Shown: in pieces, positions 1,958-35,148 of the stretch
Numbering within the stretch: position 1 is the stretch's first letter
Layout: every line of letters begins with the position of its first letter
From: Escherichia phage Lw1
DNA length: 64,000 bases
Sequence record: KC801932
Direction: 5' to 3' (one strand)
The notes under the pieces: model-generated
Database searches by the model: none
Seen by the model: the letters and a program-made list of their open reading frames with translations, nothing else
What the model was told of the DNA's origin: nothing
Program-made: the position numbers and the translations under genes

Positions 1958-2090
1958 TGATTACCCCAAACAGATTTTACATTTACAGAGAGGACATTCT
2001 GCCTCTTTAACGCGTAGGCGTTTCGTTGTTGTCTTCTTTGCCGTATTGTGATCATATACATGAAGACAACGGAAGCAGATCACCAAACGT

Positions 2091-2558
2091 TTAGCCGTCA
2101 TAACCGCCACCGCATTTAACATCACCTTCAATGAACAGTTCGCGGTTGTCTCTCAAAAGATTGTATTTCTTTTCGAGTTCCGGCCCGAATGCGTCAGCGT
2201 CTTCATAATAGCTATAATTATAACAACCGCATTCATCATCCCATTCAGGATCATCACCGCATTCGTTGAAATGTACCACTTTGATATCATCAACGCCCAG
2301 TTCTTTCATTTTATTCCAGATATACCGGATGTCAACGCTATGATAACTGAATGCTTCAAGGGTGATACTATCACCATCAATTTGAGGAATACCCCATTTA
2401 GAACGTTGGTCATCGGTAATGATATCCAGTAAAGATTCTACGTTTTCATGTCCGTAAATCTTCGCGACCTCTTCCTCTTTACCAGGACGAACAAGCCCGA
2501 TCCCGATAATAAAGCTACTGCTTGAACTGTTACTTACAAAACCAGAACGGATCTTCAT
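2091..2558 (-). CDS. hypothetical protein with N-terminal leader MKIRSGFVSNSSSSSFI (paralog A, 155 aa)
   Basis: first 17 aa identical to ORF 5968-6480, remainder unrelated; ATGA start/stop overlap with upstream membrane-protein gene. Confidence 0.6.
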   Translation of the reverse strand: MKIRSGFVSNSSSSSFIIGIGLVRPGKEEEVAKIYGHENVESLLDIITDDQRSKWGIPQIDGDSITLEAFSYHSVDIRYIWNKMKELGVDDIKVVHFNECGDDPEWDDECGCYNYSYYEDADAFGPELEKKYNLLRDNRELFIEGDVKCGGGYDG

Positions 2559-2746
2559 CGTCTTACCTCGTATTTCGCGTTCTCAGCGATTTTTTCTTGA
2601 TAGATGTTATATGACATTACCAGAGGCGCAATCGCCACGATAAGCCCTATAAAGCACACAGAGAACTCACGTTTATTGAAAGCCAGGAACGCAATTGCGC
2701 TCCCGACTACAAACACACCTAATGCCAGTAAGAAGAATAGCGTCAT
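2555..2746 (-). CDS. small membrane protein (63 aa, two predicted TM helices)
   Basis: hydrophobic segments LLALGVFVVGSAIAFLAF and FIGLIVAIAPLVM. Confidence 0.5.
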   Translation of the reverse strand: MTLFFLLALGVFVVGSAIAFLAFNKREFSVCFIGLIVAIAPLVMSYNIYQEKIAENAKYEVRR

Positions 2747-3360
2747 TTCGGCAACGTGTCCATTTTGCGTGATTTTTCCAACAGGGTTTTGATTACCGTA
2801 TCCATCGCCTGTTCTGTATCACCATCATGATAGATGATCGCGGTTTGATGCAAACCTTTCACCAAACGATTAATAATGTACGCCATTTCGGTCGGTAACA
2901 GTTTACCCGTTTCGTTGAATTTTTCAAACAGTTTGAACAGTTCTTCGTTATTCCCTTTCTTACTGAAATTGAAATTGTGCATACCAGACAGAAGACCATC
3001 CAGATACAGAACTGTTTTGTTATCAGAGCGGAGGTGTCCACCGATTTTGTAGTAGTTGCTGAAAACGTATGGCGCTTCACGAACATCATTGATTTCTAAA
3101 CCAGCATCATCGATATTGCCTACGTGGGAGAAGAAATCCGCATCGTTATCGAACAGGTTGATCGCGCCTTTCTTGTACGGGAAGCCAGCCAGATTAATGA
3201 CCCCCTTTTCATACGCATTATCGTTATCAACGACAACGTATTCAGGAAGCATAGGGGCATACGGTTTGTTTTTGTCGTGGTTTTCGCGATACGCTAAAGG
3301 TTCAGCCAGATAGAGGATATCGCCTTGTTTGACTTCATCCCAAAAGATATTACGTGACAT
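2743..3360 (-). CDS. hypothetical protein (205 aa; start at MSRNIFWDE)
   Basis: ORF track extension to 3528 overlaps the upstream gene and is rejected; start set at the internal ATG just downstream of the 3375-3395 hairpin. Confidence 0.45.
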   Translation of the reverse strand: MSRNIFWDEVKQGDILYLAEPLAYRENHDKNKPYAPMLPEYVVVDNDNAYEKGVINLAGFPYKKGAINLFDNDADFFSHVGNIDDAGLEINDVREAPYVFSNYYKIGGHLRSDNKTVLYLDGLLSGMHNFNFSKKGNNEELFKLFEKFNETGKLLPTEMAYIINRLVKGLHQTAIIYHDGDTEQAMDTVIKTLLEKSRKMDTLPK

Positions 3361-3400
3361 ATTAAATTCCTCAATATGCCCCCTTTCGGGGGCTATTTCA

Positions 3401-5620
3401 TTACAGTTTAACTTCTTTTTCTTCCAGAACGATTTCGCAATCGAATGTTGCATCTTTCCAGAACTCATGCGGGATGATTTTGTCTGCTTTAACCGATACT
3501 TTGGTTTCTTCAAAATCCAGATCCGCAAACCAGGCGTGGCCTACAACGATACCGTACATTACACGGCTCAGGCGCTTGTTCAGTGCGCGTACTTCGTTGA
3601 TGGTTGCCTTTGTTTCTTTATCAAGGTACTCGATTACCTTATCCTTGTCAAGCGCTGCGAGTTCAGCTTTAACAGCATCGTAAGCCCACAGGATGATCAG
3701 GTCGCCGTTGTTCAGTTTCTTCTTACCTTCGGCACGTTTCGCAACAGTTGCCGCTACAGCAGGAAGGGAGGAAACACCCTTGATTTTCAGATTCAGTTCT
3801 TTCGACATATAAACATCAGTCGAATCGGTACGGGTTACTTTCGGGGAGAATCCATAATCACGAATACCCTGTTCAGATAACCATTCACCAGCGGCTTCAC
3901 CGTATTTCTGTTTCAGACCTTCGGCATTACGTAAACCGATCGCGTCGTCACGGAAGAACTTCATCACCTTCTGACGACCTTTCAGGATTTCCAGACGGAT
4001 AGAGTCGTTTACATACTCTTTACCGGAGATCCCGCGAGTCATCGCACGGTTAACCAGAGGCAGACTTGTAAAGTCAACCAGTACCGACATGCGGTCTTCA
4101 CCGATTTTTGCCAGCGGCTTGATAGTCAAACCAGAAGCGCGAAGGTTTTTCAGTGTCGGAATATCGGTTTCCAGTGGCAGAACCTTAACGTTTACGATCC
4201 CATCTTTAACGATGGTGAAGTTACGCACCTGCTTAGTTTCGATTTTTTCCGGCAGTCCCAGTTCTTTCTGTTTGCTTTCTGGGATAGTTACGTAACCTTG
4301 CAGATCCGTGTTAATGGAAATGTTAGGACGTGAACTGTTGCCGACCAGATGTTTAACCGATACTTTGGTTGTTGTCTGGGTAAATTTCGGTGTCCATATT
4401 TCGTGCGTTACCATTTGTGCGGCTAATGCTTTGCGTTCTTCCGGTGTTTTCGCATTTGCGATCTGTTCTGACAGTTGATCCAGAGTATCATCTTCTTTCT
4501 GTACTGTCTGACGGCCTGTACGGTTGTACGCCCAGTGTTCAGAAGACAGGTCGATCACTGTGTCAGTTTCTGCCAGCAGTTCGAGAGCATCAACCAGAGT
4601 GAATGCGTTTTCGTCTGGAACCATGTTGTAATCAACACCTTCAATCAGACGTTTACCCGCATCAACTACCGCTTCCGCGATCAGGTCTTTGGCGTTGGAA
4701 TAATCCTGCTTAGTAAAGCAGTTATCGTAAGCCTTAATCAGACGAACGTCACCGACTTTTTTCAGCACTTTCCATGCCAGATCAGGGTTCATGGTATGAA
4801 GTGCATGATACAGAACCACGTACAGAACCTGTTCACCTTCCATCGTAGCCGGATCAAATCCGTCGATATCGTTGATTGCGTTTTCACCCAGCGCCCAGAT
4901 GTTTTTGATGTGTTCTGGAACCAGTACAACACCATTTGCAGCGTTCAGGACATACACGCGCCCTTCGTCCAGATAGATCGCATGGGTAGCGTCACCGACC
5001 TTGACTTCAACACGCGGTGATGTTTGCGCGGTGATGATTTCAGCAAATGCTGGCTCGTATGCGTCGAAACCTTCAACGAATTTATGCAATGCGTTGGTTG
5101 CTTCTGCCATTTTTTCCAGCAGCGGACGGTTTACATAATAACCGTATTCCAAGAACGCGATGCTGTTAAAAGTCAGCGGGAGAACCGCACACGCTTTCAG
5201 GATGTCATCGGTACGCCAGCAGTTATCATAACCATCCGTAAGGAAGATCAGGCTGTTCAGATTGCCGTTTTCGGATTGCAGATCAGTTGCGATTTCCGCA
5301 GCCAGGTTCAGAGGTTCAACGAAACCAGTACAACCAGTGGGTTTCAGATAGCGGTCGATCGCGGTGCAGATGTTAGTCAGATCGGATACGTTGCTAACCT
5401 TCTCACCACGGAACACAGTACCGTAATCGCCTTTGCTGGAGAAGTACAGAATCGAAACTGTATCATCCTGTTTAACCAGACTCGCCAGGTTTGCTTTCAG
5501 ATGTTTACGGATTTTCGGGAGTTCGTTATACATAGAACCGGAAACGTCACACACGAAAACGTGGTTGGTCGGAGTCGGCTTCGATACTGCGTTTTTGAAT
5601 TCGATATTTGTAATTGACAT
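3401..5620 (-). CDS. von Willebrand factor A (vWA) domain protein, 739 aa
   Basis: N-terminal MIDAS-type motif VFVCDVSGSM ... LYFSS ... FLTDG (DxSxS..T..D); long C-terminal region of unknown function. Confidence 0.6.
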   Translation of the reverse strand: MSITNIEFKNAVSKPTPTNHVFVCDVSGSMYNELPKIRKHLKANLASLVKQDDTVSILYFSSKGDYGTVFRGEKVSNVSDLTNICTAIDRYLKPTGCTGFVEPLNLAAEIATDLQSENGNLNSLIFLTDGYDNCWRTDDILKACAVLPLTFNSIAFLEYGYYVNRPLLEKMAEATNALHKFVEGFDAYEPAFAEIITAQTSPRVEVKVGDATHAIYLDEGRVYVLNAANGVVLVPEHIKNIWALGENAINDIDGFDPATMEGEQVLYVVLYHALHTMNPDLAWKVLKKVGDVRLIKAYDNCFTKQDYSNAKDLIAEAVVDAGKRLIEGVDYNMVPDENAFTLVDALELLAETDTVIDLSSEHWAYNRTGRQTVQKEDDTLDQLSEQIANAKTPEERKALAAQMVTHEIWTPKFTQTTTKVSVKHLVGNSSRPNISINTDLQGYVTIPESKQKELGLPEKIETKQVRNFTIVKDGIVNVKVLPLETDIPTLKNLRASGLTIKPLAKIGEDRMSVLVDFTSLPLVNRAMTRGISGKEYVNDSIRLEILKGRQKVMKFFRDDAIGLRNAEGLKQKYGEAAGEWLSEQGIRDYGFSPKVTRTDSTDVYMSKELNLKIKGVSSLPAVAATVAKRAEGKKKLNNGDLIILWAYDAVKAELAALDKDKVIEYLDKETKATINEVRALNKRLSRVMYGIVVGHAWFADLDFEETKVSVKADKIIPHEFWKDATFDCEIVLEEKEVKL

Positions 5621-25191: not shown

Positions 25192-26342
25192 TTTAACTCC
25201 ACTGCATAAACATCGGTTTCGGGGGCTTTGTGTACGCGCATATCTTTACCACATACCGCATAAGCCGGACAGTTGCGACAACCGTTATGATCCGTGTTGC
25301 CTGTCAGTTCTTTACGGAACTGTTTTGTTTTCGGGTGTTCCCAGATATCTTTGATAAAATCATCGGCTTCAAGGACATTCAAACCTTCACCCCAGCCACC
25401 TTCAACCCAACGTTCGGTAAACGAGCAAGGGAAGAATTCGCCTTTTTCGTTGATGTAAGAGCTAAACATCGTCGCTTCACAATCTTCCGCATACTGCTTG
25501 TATTGTTCGAAGTTCGGGTGTCCCTCCATCGCTTCAACGAAAGCTGGGGCTGAACAGCTATCGAATCCAAATCCTACACCAGAATCAAGGCAGTATTCAA
25601 CAAGTTTTTTGTATTGTTCGCGGGTGACTGTATCCCAGTTCTTACCACGTCCCTTTTGTTTCAGACCCAGGAACACGATCGCGTTGACTTGTTTCAGGCG
25701 CGGATCATTACGCACAGCATCAACAACGGTAAACGCATCATCATAGGTCTTTGAGCTAACCATGAAATGTAGGTTGATTTGCTGTTGTCCTGCTTCTGCC
25801 AGGTTTGCGACGGAATCGAAAGCAACATCGAAGCCAGCATGTTTATAAACCGATACTGCAACAGCCCCAGCAACCGCCGCTAAACGCGCTGCAACGTCTT
25901 TTGATACATCAGCAATGGTAAGGTTCGGTACAATGCCTTTAGAACGCGCATAGGCCATCATATCGAACATATCAGGGTTTGTTTGTCCCTGTGCATCAGC
26001 ACCGAGTGCGCATTGGGTTAACCAGGGCATTTTATCAATGATGGATTTGAAAGAAGCAAGATCCATATTGTAGCCGTTCGGGTTATTGGACTTGTAACAG
26101 AAACCACACAGCTTACCAGCGGGGCCATTACATTTAGTTGTGATCTCGATATCGAGGATAAAAGGAAAATGACTATAAATAGGATCGTCAGCAGGAGTTT
26201 TGCCCCAAGTCATCATATGACCTGTTTTCATATCAAAATTAAAATTAACCTCTTCGGAACGATAGATTTTCTTTCCTTTCGCTTCCAGTAGAAGTCCAAC
26301 AGGCGTTTTGATATGTTTGGCGTTTACTTTAACGTGTCTCAT
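25188..26342 (-). CDS. Fe-S protein, radical-SAM-like with C-terminal SPASM/twitch-like Cys motif
   Basis: ITTKCNGPAGKLCGFCY (Cx7Cx2C, rSAM-like TxxCN..C.FCY context) and C-terminal CRNCPAYAVC (Cx2Cx5C); start set at MRHVKV with GAGGT RBS. Confidence 0.45.
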   Translation of the reverse strand: MRHVKVNAKHIKTPVGLLLEAKGKKIYRSEEVNFNFDMKTGHMMTWGKTPADDPIYSHFPFILDIEITTKCNGPAGKLCGFCYKSNNPNGYNMDLASFKSIIDKMPWLTQCALGADAQGQTNPDMFDMMAYARSKGIVPNLTIADVSKDVAARLAAVAGAVAVSVYKHAGFDVAFDSVANLAEAGQQQINLHFMVSSKTYDDAFTVVDAVRNDPRLKQVNAIVFLGLKQKGRGKNWDTVTREQYKKLVEYCLDSGVGFGFDSCSAPAFVEAMEGHPNFEQYKQYAEDCEATMFSSYINEKGEFFPCSFTERWVEGGWGEGLNVLEADDFIKDIWEHPKTKQFRKELTGNTDHNGCRNCPAYAVCGKDMRVHKAPETDVYAVELK

Positions 26343-26354
26343 AGGAACCTCATA

Positions 26355-27083
26355 ATGTATTACGTTTACAGAATCACAAATGTTATAGAGAACAAGCACT
26401 ATTATGGATCAAGAAAACCTAAAAAGTCAATGCTTGCTTCCGACGATTTAGGGAAACACTATTTCAGTAGTTCCCGTGATAGTCATTTCATCCAAGATCA
26501 GAAGGAAAATCCAGGACACTACAAATATAAAGTAATCGTATCGGGGTTGTCAAGGGAAAAGGCGATGAAACTTGAGAAAAGGTTACACGAAATCTACAAG
26601 GTGGACACGAACCCACATTTTTATAACAAACACATACACAACAGCGTTGATTTTTCATGTACACCAGAAACAGGAAAGAAGATTTCACAAACACACCAGA
26701 AATATGCAGCAAAGAAAATTTCAGAATCACATAAAAGGCGATTCAAGGAAGGTATAGCATCACATAAAGGAGAGAACAACCCACGATACAACGATCATCG
26801 GTCTTATGAAGAGATACACGGAGAAGAAAAAGCGGAGACTATACGCAAAGCACAATCTGAATCAAGAAGAGGAAAAGGCAATTCCCGCGCGGTTACGTGG
26901 AAATTTACTTCCCCTAATGGAGAAGAATTTTTAGTTGAAGGAGAATGTAAAAAGTTTTGCAAAGACAGAAATATTTCCATGCGTAAACTGAAAACCTATC
27001 TGGGTGAAGTCATCACAACATGCGATAAACCCTACTATATCTCTAAGAATACCGTAGGATGGAAATTAGAAAAGATTATTTGA
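26355..27083 (+). CDS. GIY-YIG homing endonuclease (Seg-like)
   Basis: N-terminal MYYVYRITN...HYYGS (GIY..YIG), basic C-terminal DNA-binding region; lone plus-strand gene among minus-strand genes. Confidence 0.7.
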   Translation: MYYVYRITNVIENKHYYGSRKPKKSMLASDDLGKHYFSSSRDSHFIQDQKENPGHYKYKVIVSGLSREKAMKLEKRLHEIYKVDTNPHFYNKHIHNSVDFSCTPETGKKISQTHQKYAAKKISESHKRRFKEGIASHKGENNPRYNDHRSYEEIHGEEKAETIRKAQSESRRGKGNSRAVTWKFTSPNGEEFLVEGECKKFCKDRNISMRKLKTYLGEVITTCDKPYYISKNTVGWKLEKII

Positions 27084-27330
27084 ATCTTCTTTTACGTTCG
27101 TCAGCCAATTCTTGTTTGTACGTTTTAATGTACTTCCCGTTAAGAATTCGAAGTTGCTGGAAAACTTTGTTGCACAAAGCACGTTTCGCTTTGTATTCTG
27201 GTGTATTGCGGATTGATTCGATCGTCATACCCATTTCGTTTTTAGGGTAAGCGCTCAACTCCCTGCCGATCTCTCTGTACCAGTTGCTTAACTGGTCACG
27301 CTTTGCTTTGTACTCTTCAAAAGTTAACAT
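27076..27330 (-). CDS. hypothetical protein (84 aa)
   Basis: ORF; degenerate PeSL-like hairpin upstream at 27347-27384. Confidence 0.45.
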   Translation of the reverse strand: MLTFEEYKAKRDQLSNWYREIGRELSAYPKNEMGMTIESIRNTPEYKAKRALCNKVFQQLRILNGKYIKTYKQELADERKRRFK

Positions 27331-29186: not shown

Positions 29187-29575
29187 AATTCATATTGTGA
29201 GCGAAGGATAGCGTAAAGGCTACCGATATGGATCGTGTCTACCGGACACTGGAACAGATCCCCGCGCATCATGTTAAACTCGATATCGTTACGTTCAACA
29301 TAGTTGCCGATCATTGATGTCCAGCCCATCACCAGGTTGTAACCATCTTCCGATAACCCATAAGCCAACTTAACCAAGATGCATCGCTTATCAGCCAGTT
29401 CTACGCGCATATGGGTACTGGTATGGGTGACCTTGTTCGGGAATCTGCGAAACATTTTAGTAAGGAGTTTTGCGGTTTCAATATTGAACGCCAGTTCTTG
29501 ATCCTTACTGGTCTGGTTATCATGACGACGATCCAGATATTTCTTCATTTTCGGATTCAGATTCACATGTTGCAT
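29171..29575 (-). CDS. hypothetical protein (134 aa)
   Basis: ORF. Confidence 0.45.
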   Translation of the reverse strand: MQHVNLNPKMKKYLDRRHDNQTSKDQELAFNIETAKLLTKMFRRFPNKVTHTSTHMRVELADKRCILVKLAYGLSEDGYNLVMGWTSMIGNYVERNDIEFNMMRGDLFQCPVDTIHIGSLYAILRSQYELWDMK

Positions 29576-29784
29576 AATATATCCCTCACAGGTTTATAAC
29601 GTTCTTTTCCAGTGCCGTTGCATGAACTGCATTTTGGCGATCCGTGGTTATCATATCGCCCCGAACCATTACATGCAACACATTTCCGTAATTTCCAGCC
29701 ATACACGAACCGCATGTAATAATCGGTTCGTGCTGCCTTGCGCTCATGGAAGTTCATACTTTGTTGTAAACCTGAACAACCCAC
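29563..29784 (-). CDS. small zinc-finger protein (CVACNGSG ... CSSCNGTG, DnaJ-like CxxCxGxG repeats)
   Basis: two CxxCxGxG motifs; start position uncertain. Confidence 0.4.
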   Translation of the reverse strand: MGCSGLQQSMNFHERKAARTDYYMRFVYGWKLRKCVACNGSGRYDNHGSPKCSSCNGTGKERYKPVRDILCNM

Positions 29785-29978: not shown

Positions 29979-30034
29979 CGTTTCGATGTGTGTAATATAC
30001 AAAAAAGCCCCTGCATTGCAAGAGGCTTTTGAAT
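29979..30034 (-). promoter_or_regulatory. PeSL-like cassette 5
   Basis: core cgtttcgatgtgtgtaatatac plus hairpin agcccctgcattgcaagaggct. Confidence 0.6.
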
Positions 30035-30993
30035 TATTTTGGCAATTTTTTGATTAATGCTTGTAAGTCGTTGATTTTAGAAAACAGTTCATCGCTATAT
30101 CGCATCAATTCCTGTCTGCGTTTCGCAGCCCATGAAACCAATGTTTTTGCATCATCAACACCATAAGTGTATCCATCAGCGGATAGACGAATGATCGCAC
30201 GAGAACCGTAGTCAGCATTTGCATGTTCGATTAAAAACTTCACCGCTTCGAGAAGTTCGGAATCTTCCTTACTGACTAGAACACCGTTATCATCAGGAAA
30301 TTCGTTTTCATCATGAACACTTGCAAAATCAAGGTCGATATAATCATCCTGATTCACCTGGCGGCGCGTGTTGTCTTCGAGACTTTCAATCTGTGAAACC
30401 ATAGTTTCGACCGGATCTCTTTCAATTGGTTCTCTGTCGGTTCCTACTTCTTCCAGGAACATCAACAACCAACCAGGGATCAACGAATCAAAAGAACGCT
30501 GAATATGGCTTGCATGGTCACTACCCAGTATTTTCAACGCACAACCGTCTTTAGTAGCGGTATGGATATAGATAACATTACGGTCACGCATACGGCGGCT
30601 ACCATGAGAAAGATAGCGACGTAGCGAAGTGTTATGTCCATAGCGTCCCAGATCCAGGTTACACAGGGAATCAATAGCCCCACGGTTAGCAATCCGGTAG
30701 CGCGTACCAGTTTCAAATCGCAACTTTTCGGTAGTCACTGGTGTGAATTCTTCGTAAAGAATGTAATATTCTTTCGGGATCTCGCGATCAAGAACTCTCA
30801 ATACACCATTCTCCGAAGGAGTGAGCACAGAACGAACATTACCGTTCGCATCGCAATGTACCTGCATGACTTGAGGATAATAGAACCCTTTAGCCTTTAG
30901 GGTGTATTCATGCAAACGACTCAAGCGCTTTCTGTAGTACCATTTACCAGTAACAAACGGGGTTGCAGATCCTGCTAAACTAATTGGTTTCAT
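30034..30993 (-). CDS. hypothetical protein (319 aa), co-transcribed with DUF262 gene
   Basis: ATGA overlap with upstream DUF262 ORF; no motif recognised. Confidence 0.5.
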   Translation of the reverse strand: MKPISLAGSATPFVTGKWYYRKRLSRLHEYTLKAKGFYYPQVMQVHCDANGNVRSVLTPSENGVLRVLDREIPKEYYILYEEFTPVTTEKLRFETGTRYRIANRGAIDSLCNLDLGRYGHNTSLRRYLSHGSRRMRDRNVIYIHTATKDGCALKILGSDHASHIQRSFDSLIPGWLLMFLEEVGTDREPIERDPVETMVSQIESLEDNTRRQVNQDDYIDLDFASVHDENEFPDDNGVLVSKEDSELLEAVKFLIEHANADYGSRAIIRLSADGYTYGVDDAKTLVSWAAKRRQELMRYSDELFSKINDLQALIKKLPK

Positions 30994-31523
30994 TTTGTGG
31001 CCTTATACATTTCAATTACGCGTTTCATGTGCTCTTGTGATTGAGGCACACCAGCGAAGTTCAATTTAATGAAGAATTCAAGACGATCCTTTTTGGTGCA
31101 TTCATCCAGCCCCAGGGCAGGTAATGACAAGTTTTCAAAGGCTCGTTGTTCATGTCGTTGCATATCATCCCAGAACAGACGGGAACCATCCGGCATAGGA
31201 ATCCCAATCTCACCCTCATAGACTTTGATGATAGTCGTCAGGCGTTGTTTCCCGTCGATTACTTCTACCCAATGGGATTCATTGAATTCACTATCAACGG
31301 CAATCGCGATAATACCACATGGGAAACCAGTGATCAACGTAGTCAGGAATTCATCTTGTTCTTTCTGCGTCCACACGTAGGGGCGCTGATACGATGGATT
31401 CAGATCCAGATCCTTATTTTTCCACCAGTGAATATAACTTCCAACCATGATCGCATGTTCACGACTTTTGAAAGTTATCCGTTCACGAATTCGGTTACGG
31501 GCTGGGATATCATCTTTAGACAT
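30990..31523 (-). CDS. DUF262 (ParB/Srx-like, GmrS N-terminal-type) domain protein
   Basis: NPSYQRPYVWTQ ... VIDGKQRLTT resembles the DUF262 QR-x-yvW and DGQQR motifs. Confidence 0.5.
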   Translation of the reverse strand: MSKDDIPARNRIRERITFKSREHAIMVGSYIHWWKNKDLDLNPSYQRPYVWTQKEQDEFLTTLITGFPCGIIAIAVDSEFNESHWVEVIDGKQRLTTIIKVYEGEIGIPMPDGSRLFWDDMQRHEQRAFENLSLPALGLDECTKKDRLEFFIKLNFAGVPQSQEHMKRVIEMYKATK

Positions 31524-31845
31524 TATGGATCACCCACAGCAATAAACAAGAATTGATAACCGCGAAAGTGGTACAAATTGCAGCAAAAACACGCGCATTA
31601 TGAACATCAGTTTTCAGTTCTGCGATCTCTTGATCCTTTTCGCTTTCGAATTCGTCGCGGGTTCCATAGTAACCAGGATCAGCAGGGGTAGCAATACGCA
31701 CAGCATCTTTTTCTACAATAGTCGCATAACCATTGTTTACATTTGTTGCACCGTACCAATCACCACGGTCATTGTTAATGATCAGGTGTTGTCCCTTTTC
31801 ATTGTGCTTTGCTTCACCAGTGACAACTACACGTTTACCGTTCAT
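31516..31845 (-). CDS. hypothetical protein with C-terminal TM helix (109 aa)
   Basis: ORF. Confidence 0.45.
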   Translation of the reverse strand: MNGKRVVVTGEAKHNEKGQHLIINNDRGDWYGATNVNNGYATIVEKDAVRIATPADPGYYGTRDEFESEKDQEIAELKTDVHNARVFAAICTTFAVINSCLLLWVIHNV

Positions 31846-32110: not shown

Positions 32111-32497
32111 TTATGCCTTTGGGACAACACCGAATGCCAGAAGACCCATACGATGATCGTTATCTGCCTCTTCACGGAAGAAATAGTATTGTTCATCGGA
32201 AATATCGATTACGGTGATACCCTCTTTCAGATACGGCAACAGATATAACGGGATCAGCATCAAATCAGATTCACTGCTCCATTTACGGAAACCCAGATTT
32301 TCCATTTCTTCCCGCGTCAAATCATTAGGATCTACCGGAAAGAAATTAGGCGATTTCATCAGGCGACCAGGAAGGTCACGAATATTGCTGATTGCGAATT
32401 CCGTTCCCCATGAAGTGTATTCAATAGGTTCGGCGGCACGGGTTGCGGTAGCAACGAGAATCATTTGGCACAGTTGAAAAGTATTTGGATTGCTCAT
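32111..32497 (-). CDS. hypothetical protein (128 aa)
   Basis: ORF. Confidence 0.45.
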   Translation of the reverse strand: MSNPNTFQLCQMILVATATRAAEPIEYTSWGTEFAISNIRDLPGRLMKSPNFFPVDPNDLTREEMENLGFRKWSSESDLMLIPLYLLPYLKEGITVIDISDEQYYFFREEADNDHRMGLLAFGVVPKA

Positions 32498-32907
32498 GAT
32501 ATAGATCCCACAAGTTTAGTCAGAAGGTGTCCCATAGTCTTACGCGCATGATCGCGGATTTCGCTATAAGGAACATATTTGAAACCATCCATTTCTGTTA
32601 TAGTTCGACCATTCTTAACGAAGGTTGACGCACAGAAACATTTTTCGGCTTCGGGGTAAGTATCGCCTTTGTAGACAAACAATGCAAGTTTTTTCTTGTT
32701 TGTATAGTCCAAAACACCCAGGCTGATCAGTTGGTCGGGGAACACTTCAAAGCCAGTTTCTTCGAAGCATTCACGAATAGCAGCATCAATATGGGCTTCG
32801 CCTTTTTCAACATGCCCCTTTGGGATATCCCAGTGGGGCGTTTCGGTAGCGTGACCCATTAGAATGCTGCCGTTATTCAGAAAGAGAATACCAGCAGACA
32901 ATTCCAT
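32494..32907 (-). CDS. Nudix hydrolase (NudE-like)
   Basis: Nudix box GHVEKGEAHIDAAIRECFEETG; start set at MELSAG. Confidence 0.8.
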   Translation of the reverse strand: MELSAGILFLNNGSILMGHATETPHWDIPKGHVEKGEAHIDAAIRECFEETGFEVFPDQLISLGVLDYTNKKKLALFVYKGDTYPEAEKCFCASTFVKNGRTITEMDGFKYVPYSEIRDHARKTMGHLLTKLVGSIS

Positions 32908-32908
32908 G

Positions 32909-33136
32909 TTATACCCCTTTAGAGGTAAACTGTGCGTCGTATGCTGCAAGTGCATTATCTGCACGTTTTTTCGCTTCGGTATGCCCACGACTATCATTGA
33001 TAGCACGACGATACATTTCGACCCAGAATACGCGACGTGTATCTTCGTTCGCTTCAAACAGTTTAATATCGCGGTATACGTTTTGCTCTTTGATCATTTG
33101 AGCAAGTTGCAGGTCATGTTCGGTTTGGAAAGTCAT
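32909..33136 (-). CDS. hypothetical protein (75 aa)
   Basis: ORF. Confidence 0.45.
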   Translation of the reverse strand: MTFQTEHDLQLAQMIKEQNVYRDIKLFEANEDTRRVFWVEMYRRAINDSRGHTEAKKRADNALAAYDAQFTSKGV

Positions 33137-33387: not shown

Positions 33388-33673
33388 AATATTCTTCGTA
33401 GTCCTCGCAATCTGGGAGATACGTTTCGCAGAACATGCACAACGTGAAGAAAGTAGGCTGGCGAATCCCTGGATTATCAGGTAGATACATCCAGAACGTG
33501 TTAGCAAACACGATGAAGGTTTTCAGGTTTTCAACGGTTACTTCGCTGATACCATCATAACCGGATTGAGCAATAGCGCGTTCCAGGGGAACATGGTATT
33601 GCTGGCAGTAGTCGGCGTAATGTTCACTCAATACCATTGAGTTAGCCGCTTTTACGAGATCGATAATTTTCAT
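33380..33673 (-). CDS. hypothetical protein (97 aa)
   Basis: ORF. Confidence 0.45.
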   Translation of the reverse strand: MKIIDLVKAANSMVLSEHYADYCQQYHVPLERAIAQSGYDGISEVTVENLKTFIVFANTFWMYLPDNPGIRQPTFFTLCMFCETYLPDCEDYEEYYG

Positions 33674-34008
33674 GCTTTTACATATTCCACTTTAACAGGT
33701 TTGGCGATAAGGTGATCTTTGGTGTAACCTTGTCCGTCGCAAACATCACAAACGATTTTGAAATCTTCCATTTGGTCGACCCATCCATAATCAGGCAATC
33801 CAGAAGGGTACGTGTTGAAGGTTTTAACACTGTATCCTTTCCCATCACACTTAGGGCATTTATACGGGTATTTCGATTTGATCGCACTATACAATTGACC
33901 CAATGTGGTCGAATGATCAAAGTGTATAACAAATGCTTCAATGTCAGCAATACGCAGTTCGTTTGGCTTGATCACAGTAAACACATTTGAAGGTATGTTT
34001 GAGCGCAT
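33670..34008 (-). CDS. zinc-finger protein (CPKCDGKG ... CDVCDGQG)
   Basis: two CxxCxGxG motifs; start set at MRSNIP. Confidence 0.45.
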   Translation of the reverse strand: MRSNIPSNVFTVIKPNELRIADIEAFVIHFDHSTTLGQLYSAIKSKYPYKCPKCDGKGYSVKTFNTYPSGLPDYGWVDQMEDFKIVCDVCDGQGYTKDHLIAKPVKVEYVKA

Positions 34009-34250
34009 AATATATTTCTCACTTAAAGAATTTTTTGATGAAAGAGAGGAACAATCCACCACCGAACATGATCCAGTATCCCGCGCCGTCACCGTGAAAC
34101 AGGACGTAAACCGCGACACCATAACAAAAGATTTCTGCAATATTCAGTAAGTTTCTCATAATCCCCTCCCTTTTCTCTACACCAGGTATTTTACCAGAAA
34201 ATAGACTACTGTCAACAACAAAGTTTTATCAACGATACGATCACCAGTCA

Positions 34251-34626: not shown

Positions 34627-35148
34627 TCACGAACTCTCGCCGCGATGTTCGATGTGCTCCGTGATATCCTCAACAGTCTTATCAAGGTCCAGAGATTCAG
34701 CATCTTCCTTGATAATAGTCAAATCTACAGGCAGTGTCAACAGTCTTTTCACTCCGCTGATATCTTCGATACGAGAATCATACGCAAGGGTAACATGCGG
34801 TTTGTAGTTGTCAAAATCGTAAGTCGCTCCGGCATCCATCGCATCATTGAAACGGCTATGCAGATAATCAGACTCCAGAACACCGACGATAGTGTTACCG
34901 TATTTTGTGTCCCACTTCTCTACGTCAACCAGTCGGGCAGGTTCAGAGATACCAGAGGCAGGGAACAAATCAACCGTCTTACGGCTATACACAATCGTTG
35001 TATGAAGTTTTTCAGCAGACACCGGATTCTCTACACCCAGAAGTTTTTGCACTTGTGCAAGCGCTTCACAGGAAGCCTGATCGAACTTCGCACACATATA
35101 GATCCCCGAATCAACTACGGGTTTCGCAACTTCAATAAAACTTTTCAT
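34627..35148 (-). CDS. acb1: 2H phosphoesterase, Acb1-like anti-CBASS nuclease (T4 gene 57B position)
   Basis: two H-x-T-x motifs (LHTTIVYS and PHVTLAYD) about 70 aa apart; immediately downstream of 57A as 57B is in T4. Confidence 0.7.
   Translation of the reverse strand: MKSFIEVAKPVVDSGIYMCAKFDQASCEALAQVQKLLGVENPVSAEKLHTTIVYSRKTVDLFPASGISEPARLVDVEKWDTKYGNTIVGVLESDYLHSRFNDAMDAGATYDFDNYKPHVTLAYDSRIEDISGVKRLLTLPVDLTIIKEDAESLDLDKTVEDITEHIEHRGESS

Follow-up and report, generated by a model that had tools for sequence, protein, structure and literature searches.

Several anti-phage systems of bacteria, among them GmrSD/BrxU, SspE, Menshen, Dazbog and PD-T4-2, use DUF262 as their sensor domain. 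The domain is of the ParB/Srx type and is defined by the motifs QRxxxW, DGxQR and FxxxN, the second of which has a role in nucleoside triphosphate (NTP) phosphate binding (PMC12065111; PMC12137116). Every characterised DUF262 defence protein also has a helical DNA-binding middle domain, ParBDB (PMC12065111). Two-gene systems are described in which the DUF262 component has no nuclease: GmrS1 of the ECOR17 GmrS1/GmrSD2 pair, GrwB of Vibrio cholerae GrwAB, NsnA of Menshen and PD-T4-2_A. Here, we describe a DUF262 gene and the gene that overlaps its end in Escherichia phage Lw1, a T4-like phage of the genus Pseudotevenvirus; the stretch analysed, called the window below, comprises 64,000 nucleotides (nt) of record KC801932. 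The 177-amino-acid (aa) DUF262 protein has all three motifs intact and no nuclease, and the gene for its 319-aa partner occupies a slot that behaves as a swappable cassette.

The likeness to GmrSD, BrxU and SspE lies in the N-terminal NTP-binding domain: the same three motifs are present, and BrxU and SspE are matched by profile and by fold. Those proteins are, however, 580–800 aa long, and the phage protein has neither the helical middle domain nor a DUF1524/HNH nuclease; its motif II reads DGKQR where the GmrSD family has DGQQR. With GmrS1, GrwB, NsnA and PD-T4-2_A it has in common a DUF262 domain that carries no nuclease of its own and that would work with a second gene product, and NsnA and PD-T4-2_A are its top PADLOC matches. 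These four are longer proteins from bacteria that carry ParBDB or additional domains, and the partners in such systems are recognisable effectors or ATPases (GmrSD, the ABC ATPase NsnB, the nuclease NsnC); the phage partner contains neither kind of domain, and there is no ATPase gene in its vicinity. Neither an NsnB ABC ATPase (AAA_15 plus DUF3696) nor an NsnC effector was found among the neighbouring open reading frames (ORFs), and there is no PD-T4-2_B beside the DUF262 gene, the partner having no PADLOC match at E ≤ 1.

Size and fold also resemble the CTPase N-domain of ParB, as well as Noc, KorB and PadC, the last being a stand-alone CTP-binding adaptor domain of ~ 130 residues. The phage protein differs from these in having the DUF262-branch motifs, not the GERRxR box, and in lacking a helix-turn-helix and a C-terminal dimerisation domain. 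No ParB was matched at the sequence level in the PDB, and the likeness to its N-domain is one of fold only. Because the defining features of each system were looked for and not found, the locus is not a GmrSD enzyme, Menshen, PD-T4-2 or a canonical ParB.

The 177-aa DUF262 protein

A first-pass annotation made from the letters of the window had assigned the 177-aa product to DUF262 (ParB/Srx-like) from two peptides, NPSYQRPYVWTQ and VIDGKQRLTT. Both occur in the translation; LNPSYQRPYVWTQ spans residues 41–53 and EVIDGKQRLTT residues 87–97. The profile search bore the assignment out. Well beyond what chance would give, Pfam PF03235 (GmrSD_N) matched at E 3.5e-20 with 73.4 bits, against a gathering cut-off of 33.2 bits, over profile positions 12–184 of 199, and PHROG 1583 matched at E 1.6e-59 while covering just profile positions 4–178 of 417.

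We scored the conservation of the motifs in an alignment of 30 homologues. Q46 and R47 of motif I are invariant and W51 nearly so, and all five residues of motif II are invariant. Motif III continues into a clade-specific extension, NFAGVPQSxEH, and F151, N155, G158, P160 and H165 are nearly invariant. Taken together, the residues of motifs I–III are invariant or at least 90% conserved.

An AlphaFold2 model built from the homologue alignment had a predicted local distance difference test score (pLDDT) of 87.8. Searched against the PDB with Foldseek, it matched ParB, Noc, PadC, BrxU, KorB, SspE and Srx with a probability of ~ 1.0 and a modest TM of ~ 0.4; the top matches, ParB, Noc and PadC, reached E ~ 1e-3, and Srx was weak (E > 0.1). 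When the DUF262 family profile was run against PDB sequences, BrxU was found (7p9k, E 5e-8, N-terminal domain alone), as was SspE. The best PADLOC matches were Menshen NsnA (1.6e-16) and PD-T4-2_A (2.9e-12). The gene is under strong purifying selection: 33 synonymous and 4 non-synonymous differences separate it from its counterpart in Escherichia phage RB16, a ratio of non-synonymous to synonymous rates (dN/dS) of 0.025. Because the profile, the motifs, the fold, the BrxU and SspE profile matches and this ratio agree, we consider the DUF262 call sound; the protein is a complete DUF262 domain, and the domain looks functional. With motif II intact, it is predicted to bind, and probably to hydrolyse, NTP. 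The call itself is ordinary. Homologues are already annotated as such in RB16 (2010), UPEC03 and ST64B, and one deposited genome calls its copy "DefenseFinder protein".

The likeness to GmrSD-type restriction enzymes drawn in the first-pass annotation, by contrast, ends at the N-terminal domain. Past motif III the model shows only two short helices, and the helical middle or ParBDB domain is absent. The profile matches likewise end early, at position 178 of 417 in PHROG 1583, within positions 45–205 of 385 in NsnA and in the N-domain of BrxU. Searches with Pfam and PADLOC found no His-Me/HNH, DUF1524 or other nuclease signature in the DUF262 protein, its partner or the neighbouring ORFs, and the unit as a whole yielded no nuclease.

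The short form is not a truncation peculiar to this phage, because its relatives from both the word-index search and IMG/VR are likewise short. All 33 word-index homologues are 104–297 aa long. IMG/VR holds 427 viral contigs with DUF262 relatives, and in the best 80 loci, which are those we examined, the DUF262 ORFs measure 154–308 aa. Homologues longer than ~ 180 aa have their extra residues mostly N-terminal to the domain. Members of the short clade come from temperate ST64B-like phages, from Pseudotevenvirus, Slopekvirus, Krischvirus and Mydovirus (Vequintavirinae), and from other large phages. Their closest long relatives of cellular origin resemble the phage protein only weakly; the clade of short DUF262 proteins to which it belongs is old and specific to phages. 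Searches with the DUF262 protein and with its partner returned hundreds of phage homologues for the two ORFs; a literature search turned up no paper on stand-alone phage DUF262 proteins.

A partner gene in a swappable slot

The two ORFs are where the first-pass annotation had placed them, and the genes are phage-borne as it had supposed: Lw1, a Pseudotevenvirus, has the Citrobacter phages Xman and Miller as well as RB16 among its close relatives. Over the ~ 2.5 kb that surround the pair, identity is 94% with Citrobacter phages vB_Cfr_Xman, Miller, IME-CF2 and CfP1, and RB16 is identical in part. Both ORFs lie on the minus strand, which had not been stated. The plus strand reads tcat at 30990–30993, and the minus strand therefore has ATGA at the DUF262 stop and partner start, a 4-nt overlap that had been noted correctly. 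A Shine-Dalgarno-like AAGG lies 7 nt 5′ of the partner ATG and a GGTGA 6 nt 5′ of the DUF262 ATG. A consensus scan of the minus strand found a terminator-like hairpin just past the partner stop codon and, from there up to ~ 33500, no other such site, including between the two genes; terminators are annotated at the equivalent position in CfP1 and Miro. The overlap, the AAGG and the placing of the only terminator-like site make the proposed co-transcription plausible. A scan for sigma-70-type promoters gave no more sites than shuffled expectation, and we therefore assigned none.

The unit is nevertheless wider than the two genes to which it had been confined, since a 109-aa gene upstream overlaps the DUF262 start. 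The product of this gene has a single hydrophobic helix (residues 88–106, KD19 2.1) and, because this lone helix is C-terminal, is predicted to be tail-anchored. The 109-aa gene is also 5′ of DUF262 in RB16, in Miro and in two distant contigs (L011 and L013); other genes stand there in L008–L010 and L012.

The 319-aa partner matches PHROG 10932 from end to end. It has no match in Pfam, NCBIfam, PADLOC or PDB sequences, nor any by fold, in keeping with the earlier remark that it has no recognisable motif. When 1.84 billion representatives were searched exhaustively with an HMMER profile, 16 family members emerged, against only four clusters from a word-index search. The family includes two-domain homologues of 261–328 aa (21–27% identity) and forms of 101–104 aa that have the C-terminal domain only; its features, which the partner has, are the C-terminal helical domain with EDxxLLxAVKxL ... 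Y ... R and a position downstream of DUF262. PHROG 15764, a 102-aa family, matches partner residues 235–319 (E 4.3e-11). A low-confidence AlphaFold2 model suggests three parts: a beta-rich N-terminal domain, a disordered acidic linker and two long C-terminal helices. The linker differs in length among homologues.

Y19, F83, P173, D244, L247, L254, Y275 and R292 are invariant in an alignment of 13 partner sequences. The same alignment contains no conserved set of His, Asn, Cys or acidic residues, and H120 and N121 of the local motif YGHNTS are not conserved. The first-pass annotation had detected no His-Me finger in the partner; nor did we, with no Pfam match in the partner or in 12 family members. 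We thus ruled out the partner as a His-Me, HNH or other nuclease, given the empty Pfam, PADLOC, NCBIfam and PDB searches and the lack of conserved catalytic residues in the alignment. Compared with Xman, the partner gene has a dN/dS of 0.146, and both ORFs are genuine genes under purifying selection. The partner evolves faster than the DUF262 protein, with identities of 55% versus 79% to Miro and 36% versus 98% to RB16.

A gene of the partner family lies directly 3′ of DUF262, or one gene off, in Xman, Miro, RB16, UPEC03 and JC221, in all six distant metagenomic or Pantoea-phage contigs and in nine IMG/VR loci. The adjacency holds despite partner identities down to 21–27% and despite differing genes upstream of DUF262. 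We did not see the partner family away from DUF262 in any genome inspected. Its tblastn matches in phages come from the host groups that also supply the DUF262-positive T4-like phages, with one place per record.

Comparison with RB16 shows how the slot changes. Blastn alignments of the window stop at 30052 and restart at 30989; the flanks are 93–95% identical, and nothing aligns between them. The RB16 slot holds RB16p167, a 102-aa protein that has only the C-terminal domain in common with the partner (36% identity; hidden Markov model (HMM) E 6e-18). The partner slot thus behaves as a swappable cassette. Because the RB16 cassette retains the C-domain alone, we take the C-terminal helical domain to be the part kept beside DUF262 and the N-domain to be variable. 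Neither this two-domain anatomy nor the cassette behaviour is noted in the annotations that we saw for PHROG 1583, 10932, 15764 and 7472.

Other genes found next to DUF262 were compared with the partner. In L008–L013 and L019 the gene between DUF262 and the partner (e.g. L010, 3543–3998) encodes a multi-pass membrane protein of 151–156 aa, PHROG 944, with the motif SWHYRFNVW...CSYFWFT...CPIIEF; the gene is absent from the window. We ruled this protein out as a specific third component, as it occurs in Jiaodavirus, Aeromonas phages and others that have no adjoining DUF262. The proteins of 192–260 aa upstream of DUF262 in L008, L009 and L012 are not partner paralogues (no match with hmmsearch; hhalign probability 10%). 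Downstream of DUF262, ST64B-type phages have an ead/Ea22-like gene and Vequintavirinae a gene for a beta-rich protein of 102–109 aa. In the early-left accessory region of ST64B (2495–3624), the DUF262 gene sb33 and the ead/Ea22-like gene after it overlap, stop on start; this neighbour recurs in 10 loci of temperate ST64B-like phages (among L032–L041, L049 and L055) and has no detectable homology to the partner. Kinship of the partner with the ead/Ea22-like protein, the 102-aa Vequintavirinae protein or the neighbour in the 266-aa clade was ruled out (hhalign ≤ 1.5%). One 180,500-bp IMG/VR contig, UViG_638276010 (L022), has a partial match to the partner C-domain at 4607–4825 (HMM positions 26–87), with a downstream ORF of 55 aa; in this close relative the partner has perhaps decayed, or its start may have been called wrongly.

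Neighbouring genes

The pair sits in a run of small minus-strand accessory genes that includes Acb1 and NudE (Table 1), ~ 4 kb downstream of Acb1, a proven anti-defence gene, and on the same strand as it. We take this run to be the counterpart of the T4 region from nudE to 57B, which is non-essential and has early or middle transcription. As read from the gene order, DUF262 would be the second-to-last cistron of a long leftward operon of early-type accessory genes that runs from Acb1 through NudE to the 109-aa gene, DUF262, the partner and the terminator.

Table 1. Features of the DUF262 locus and its surroundings in the window (positions are those of the whole stretch; AF2, AlphaFold2).
Feature	Position	Strand	Evidence or property
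Stand-alone DUF262 (ParB/Srx-type, GmrSD_N) protein, 177 aa	30990..31523	minus	Pfam PF03235, PHROG 1583, AF2 fold
DUF262 motif I, QRxxxW (Q46 R47 P Y V W51)	31371..31388	minus	read from sequence
DUF262 motif II, DGxQR (D90 G K Q R94), predicted NTP phosphate-binding centre	31242..31256	minus	homologue alignment
DUF262 motif III, FxxxN (F151 I K L N155)	31059..31073	minus	homologue alignment
Partner protein, 319 aa (PHROG 10932)	30034..30993	minus	PHROG 10932 E 3.7e-184, end to end
Partner N-terminal beta-rich basic domain, ~ residues 10–185	30439..30966	minus	isoelectric point (pI) 9.6, net charge +9; AF2 model
Partner acidic disordered linker, residues 186–240	30274..30438	minus	net charge −13; pLDDT < 50 across 188–241
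Partner C-terminal helical domain, residues 241–319 (= PHROG 15764)	30037..30273	minus	motif EDxxLLxAVKxL ... Y ... R
Cassette interval	30053..30988	.	DNA homology to RB16 and UPEC03 lost exactly over partner ORF body
Terminator-like hairpin and T-run	30003..30030	minus	4 nt past partner stop codon; consensus scan
Predicted tail-anchored membrane protein, 109 aa (PHROG 7472)	31516..31845	minus	overlaps DUF262 start by 8 nt; PHROG 7472 E 1.8e-66
NudE, Nudix hydrolase	32494..33057	minus	
Acb1, anti-CBASS 2H phosphodiesterase, 173 aa (T4 57B equivalent)	34627..35148	minus	Pfam PF23474 E 3.3e-48
Homing endonuclease ORF, 256 aa, GIY-YIG-like N-terminus (YVYRITN...YYGS)	26313-27083	plus	PHROG 314 "homing endonuclease" E 5e-26; no Pfam match

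The neighbouring ORFs contain no nuclease, ATPase or effector domain, save for an unrelated homing endonuclease ~ 3 kb off on the other strand. This 256-aa ORF runs opposite to all its neighbours, and the interval ~ 26160–27090 has no counterpart in the RB16, UPEC03 and Xman loci; since the interval is missing there, we regard it as a free-standing homing endonuclease inserted beside a radical-SAM/SPASM gene. Two small minus-strand ORFs, at 29563–29784 and 33670–34140, have paired CxxCxGxG motifs of the DnaJ zinc-finger type. The second has a weak match to Pfam DnaJ_CXXCXGXG (E 5e-4, below cut-off), and the first matches PHROG 12902.

What the pair may do

We tentatively favour a reading in which the locus encodes a nuclease-less, NTP-gated ParB/Srx switch with a lineage-specific, non-enzymatic adaptor, the two acting in genome conflict by binding and not by cutting. 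The 177-aa protein would be a stand-alone, early-expressed switch that binds and probably hydrolyses NTP. The 319-aa protein would be its adaptor and would contact it physically: the C-terminal helical domain would be the part that travels with DUF262, and the basic beta-rich N-domain an exchangeable head for a nucleic acid or protein target. Directed against host defence or against competing phages, the pair would operate through NTP-controlled binding rather than through GmrSD-like DNA cleavage. In favour of this proposal count the DUF262 identity and the absence of a nuclease, the constant nearness of the partner family to DUF262, the overlap and single terminator that the two genes have in common, the modular slot, the fast evolution of the partner beside a slow DUF262, and the accessory and anti-defence neighbourhood with Acb1 and NudE.

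Several observations weigh against it. The first-pass annotation spoke of a two-gene module, and this does not extend to the DUF262 clade in general: the partner is present in only nine of the 80 viral loci, a subset of Straboviridae, and the remaining 71 have no partner homologue and have downstream genes that are mutually unrelated. Different genes adjoin DUF262 in ECD7, Klebsiella phage DP and ST64B. An isolated Slopekvirus, Klebsiella phage Earwig_ER32 (PP738774.1, locus 1968–3185), matches Miro at 99.8% identity across DUF262 and on into the partner for ~ 40 codons, after which it continues into unrelated DNA with a 144-aa ORF; because of this divergence, a viable isolate keeps an intact DUF262 gene without the partner. 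Distant T4-like relatives have a gene for a membrane protein of ~ 152 aa between DUF262 and the partner. The identities with RB16, 98% for DUF262 and 36% for the partner C-domains, disfavour a tightly co-evolving interface. Since every genome with the partner belongs to related Straboviridae, common descent could account for the adjacency, and the model of the partner, built from five sequences, is of low confidence (pLDDT 59.8).

The main rival, which we regard as possible if doubtful, takes up most of these points. DUF262 would work alone, and the 319-aa ORF would be the next accessory gene in a plastic region, adjacent through inherited synteny without functional coupling. On its own, the DUF262 protein might bind DNA or exert regulation in an NTP-dependent way, in the manner of DndB, serve as a CTP-binding adaptor, as PadC does, or be a small ATPase or DNase comparable to plasmid Osa. 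The partnerless loci, the Earwig isolate that has lost most of the partner, the extra gene in distant relatives and the RB16 identities all speak for it, and 4-nt overlaps are common in phage operons generally. Against it, the partner family was never met apart from DUF262 in the genomes inspected, and the gene bearing the C-domain stays at its exact slot through the cassette replacement while the neighbours upstream and downstream change. Also to be considered, although we think it unlikely, is an anti-defence decoy, in which the phage DUF262 would mimic the sensors of GmrSD/BrxU, SspE, Menshen NsnA, Dazbog and PD-T4-2, either poisoning them by NTP-dependent hetero-oligomerisation or competing for their DNA signal, while the head of the partner would lend specificity for a target. 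Its best PADLOC matches are indeed defence sensors, NsnA and PD-T4-2_A, the early accessory operon also carries the anti-CBASS gene Acb1, and the partner is fast-evolving and swappable; moreover, ParB-type N-domains dimerise upon NTP binding, as is established for ParB, and the pairing of a nuclease-less GmrS-like protein with a GmrSD protein is known from ECOR17 and from GrwAB. The clade, however, is old and phage-specific, with no recent capture of a host sensor and with long cellular forms only weakly similar, and the high conservation of the protein is not what one expects of a decoy, which should keep pace with host variants.

Two further explanations, which take in the roles in nucleotide metabolism and superinfection exclusion that the first-pass annotation had suggested, appear less probable still. 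We consider it quite improbable that the protein is a ParB/Srx-fold phosphotransferase acting on a small molecule or a protein, like sulfiredoxin and the free serine kinases, in nucleotide or metabolite metabolism beside NudE. Sulfiredoxin is among the fold matches, the Nudix hydrolase NudE lies nearby, ST64B has a deoxynucleoside monophosphate (dNMP) phosphatase gene two genes upstream of DUF262, and the conserved PQSxEH stretch by which motif III is extended in this clade might serve as a substrate site. The sequence affinity is nonetheless with the DNA-sensing DUF262 branch (BrxU, SspE, NsnA) and not with Srx or SerK, the Srx fold matches being as weak as noted above, and no metabolic partner gene is conserved across lineages. 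Very improbable, in our judgement, is a split GmrSD-like system for modification-dependent restriction or superinfection exclusion, with DUF262 sensing modified T-even DNA and the partner serving as a new nuclease effector. Such a system would agree with the intact motifs, with the translationally coupled two-gene operon, with the known split systems GmrS/GmrD and GmrS1/GmrSD2, with the "DefenseFinder protein" label on one homologue and with the membrane proteins that flank the DUF262 gene. The partner, however, shows neither the fold nor a motif of a nuclease: D244 and R292 apart, its invariant residues are aromatic or aliphatic, and H120 and N121 are not conserved in distant members. The RB16-type partner is a mere 102-aa helical domain, and the phage protein lacks the helical ParBDB domain of the characterised defence proteins.

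What the locus offers, then, is a conserved copy of a bacterial defence sensor that has no effector and has its nucleotide-binding motifs intact, tied in T4-like phages to a fast-evolving partner. It raises the question of what use an effector-less sensor is to a virus: it might mimic host immunity, exclude rivals without a nuclease or serve as a regulatory nucleotide switch. The protein is small, abundant as a family and easy to express, and there are natural variants in the C-domain-only partner of RB16 and the partner-truncated Slopekvirus isolate, so that the question is directly testable. Were the DUF262 gene merely a dispensable accessory gene, the finding would be an ordinary one. At least 427 IMG/VR contigs carry a short DUF262 relative, and such relatives occur in T4-like, Vequintavirinae-like and temperate ST64B-like phages. 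It is an unlikely but conceivable outcome that the short phage DUF262 proteins form a widespread class of viral counter-defence or inter-virus weapons built on a bacterial-type NTP-gated ParB/Srx sensor. If so, they could be dominant-negative decoys that poison host GmrSD, SspE, Menshen or Dazbog, or DNA clamps without a nuclease by which foreign DNA is marked or occluded, and rapidly swapped, lineage-specific adaptors such as the 319-aa partner would supply their specificity.

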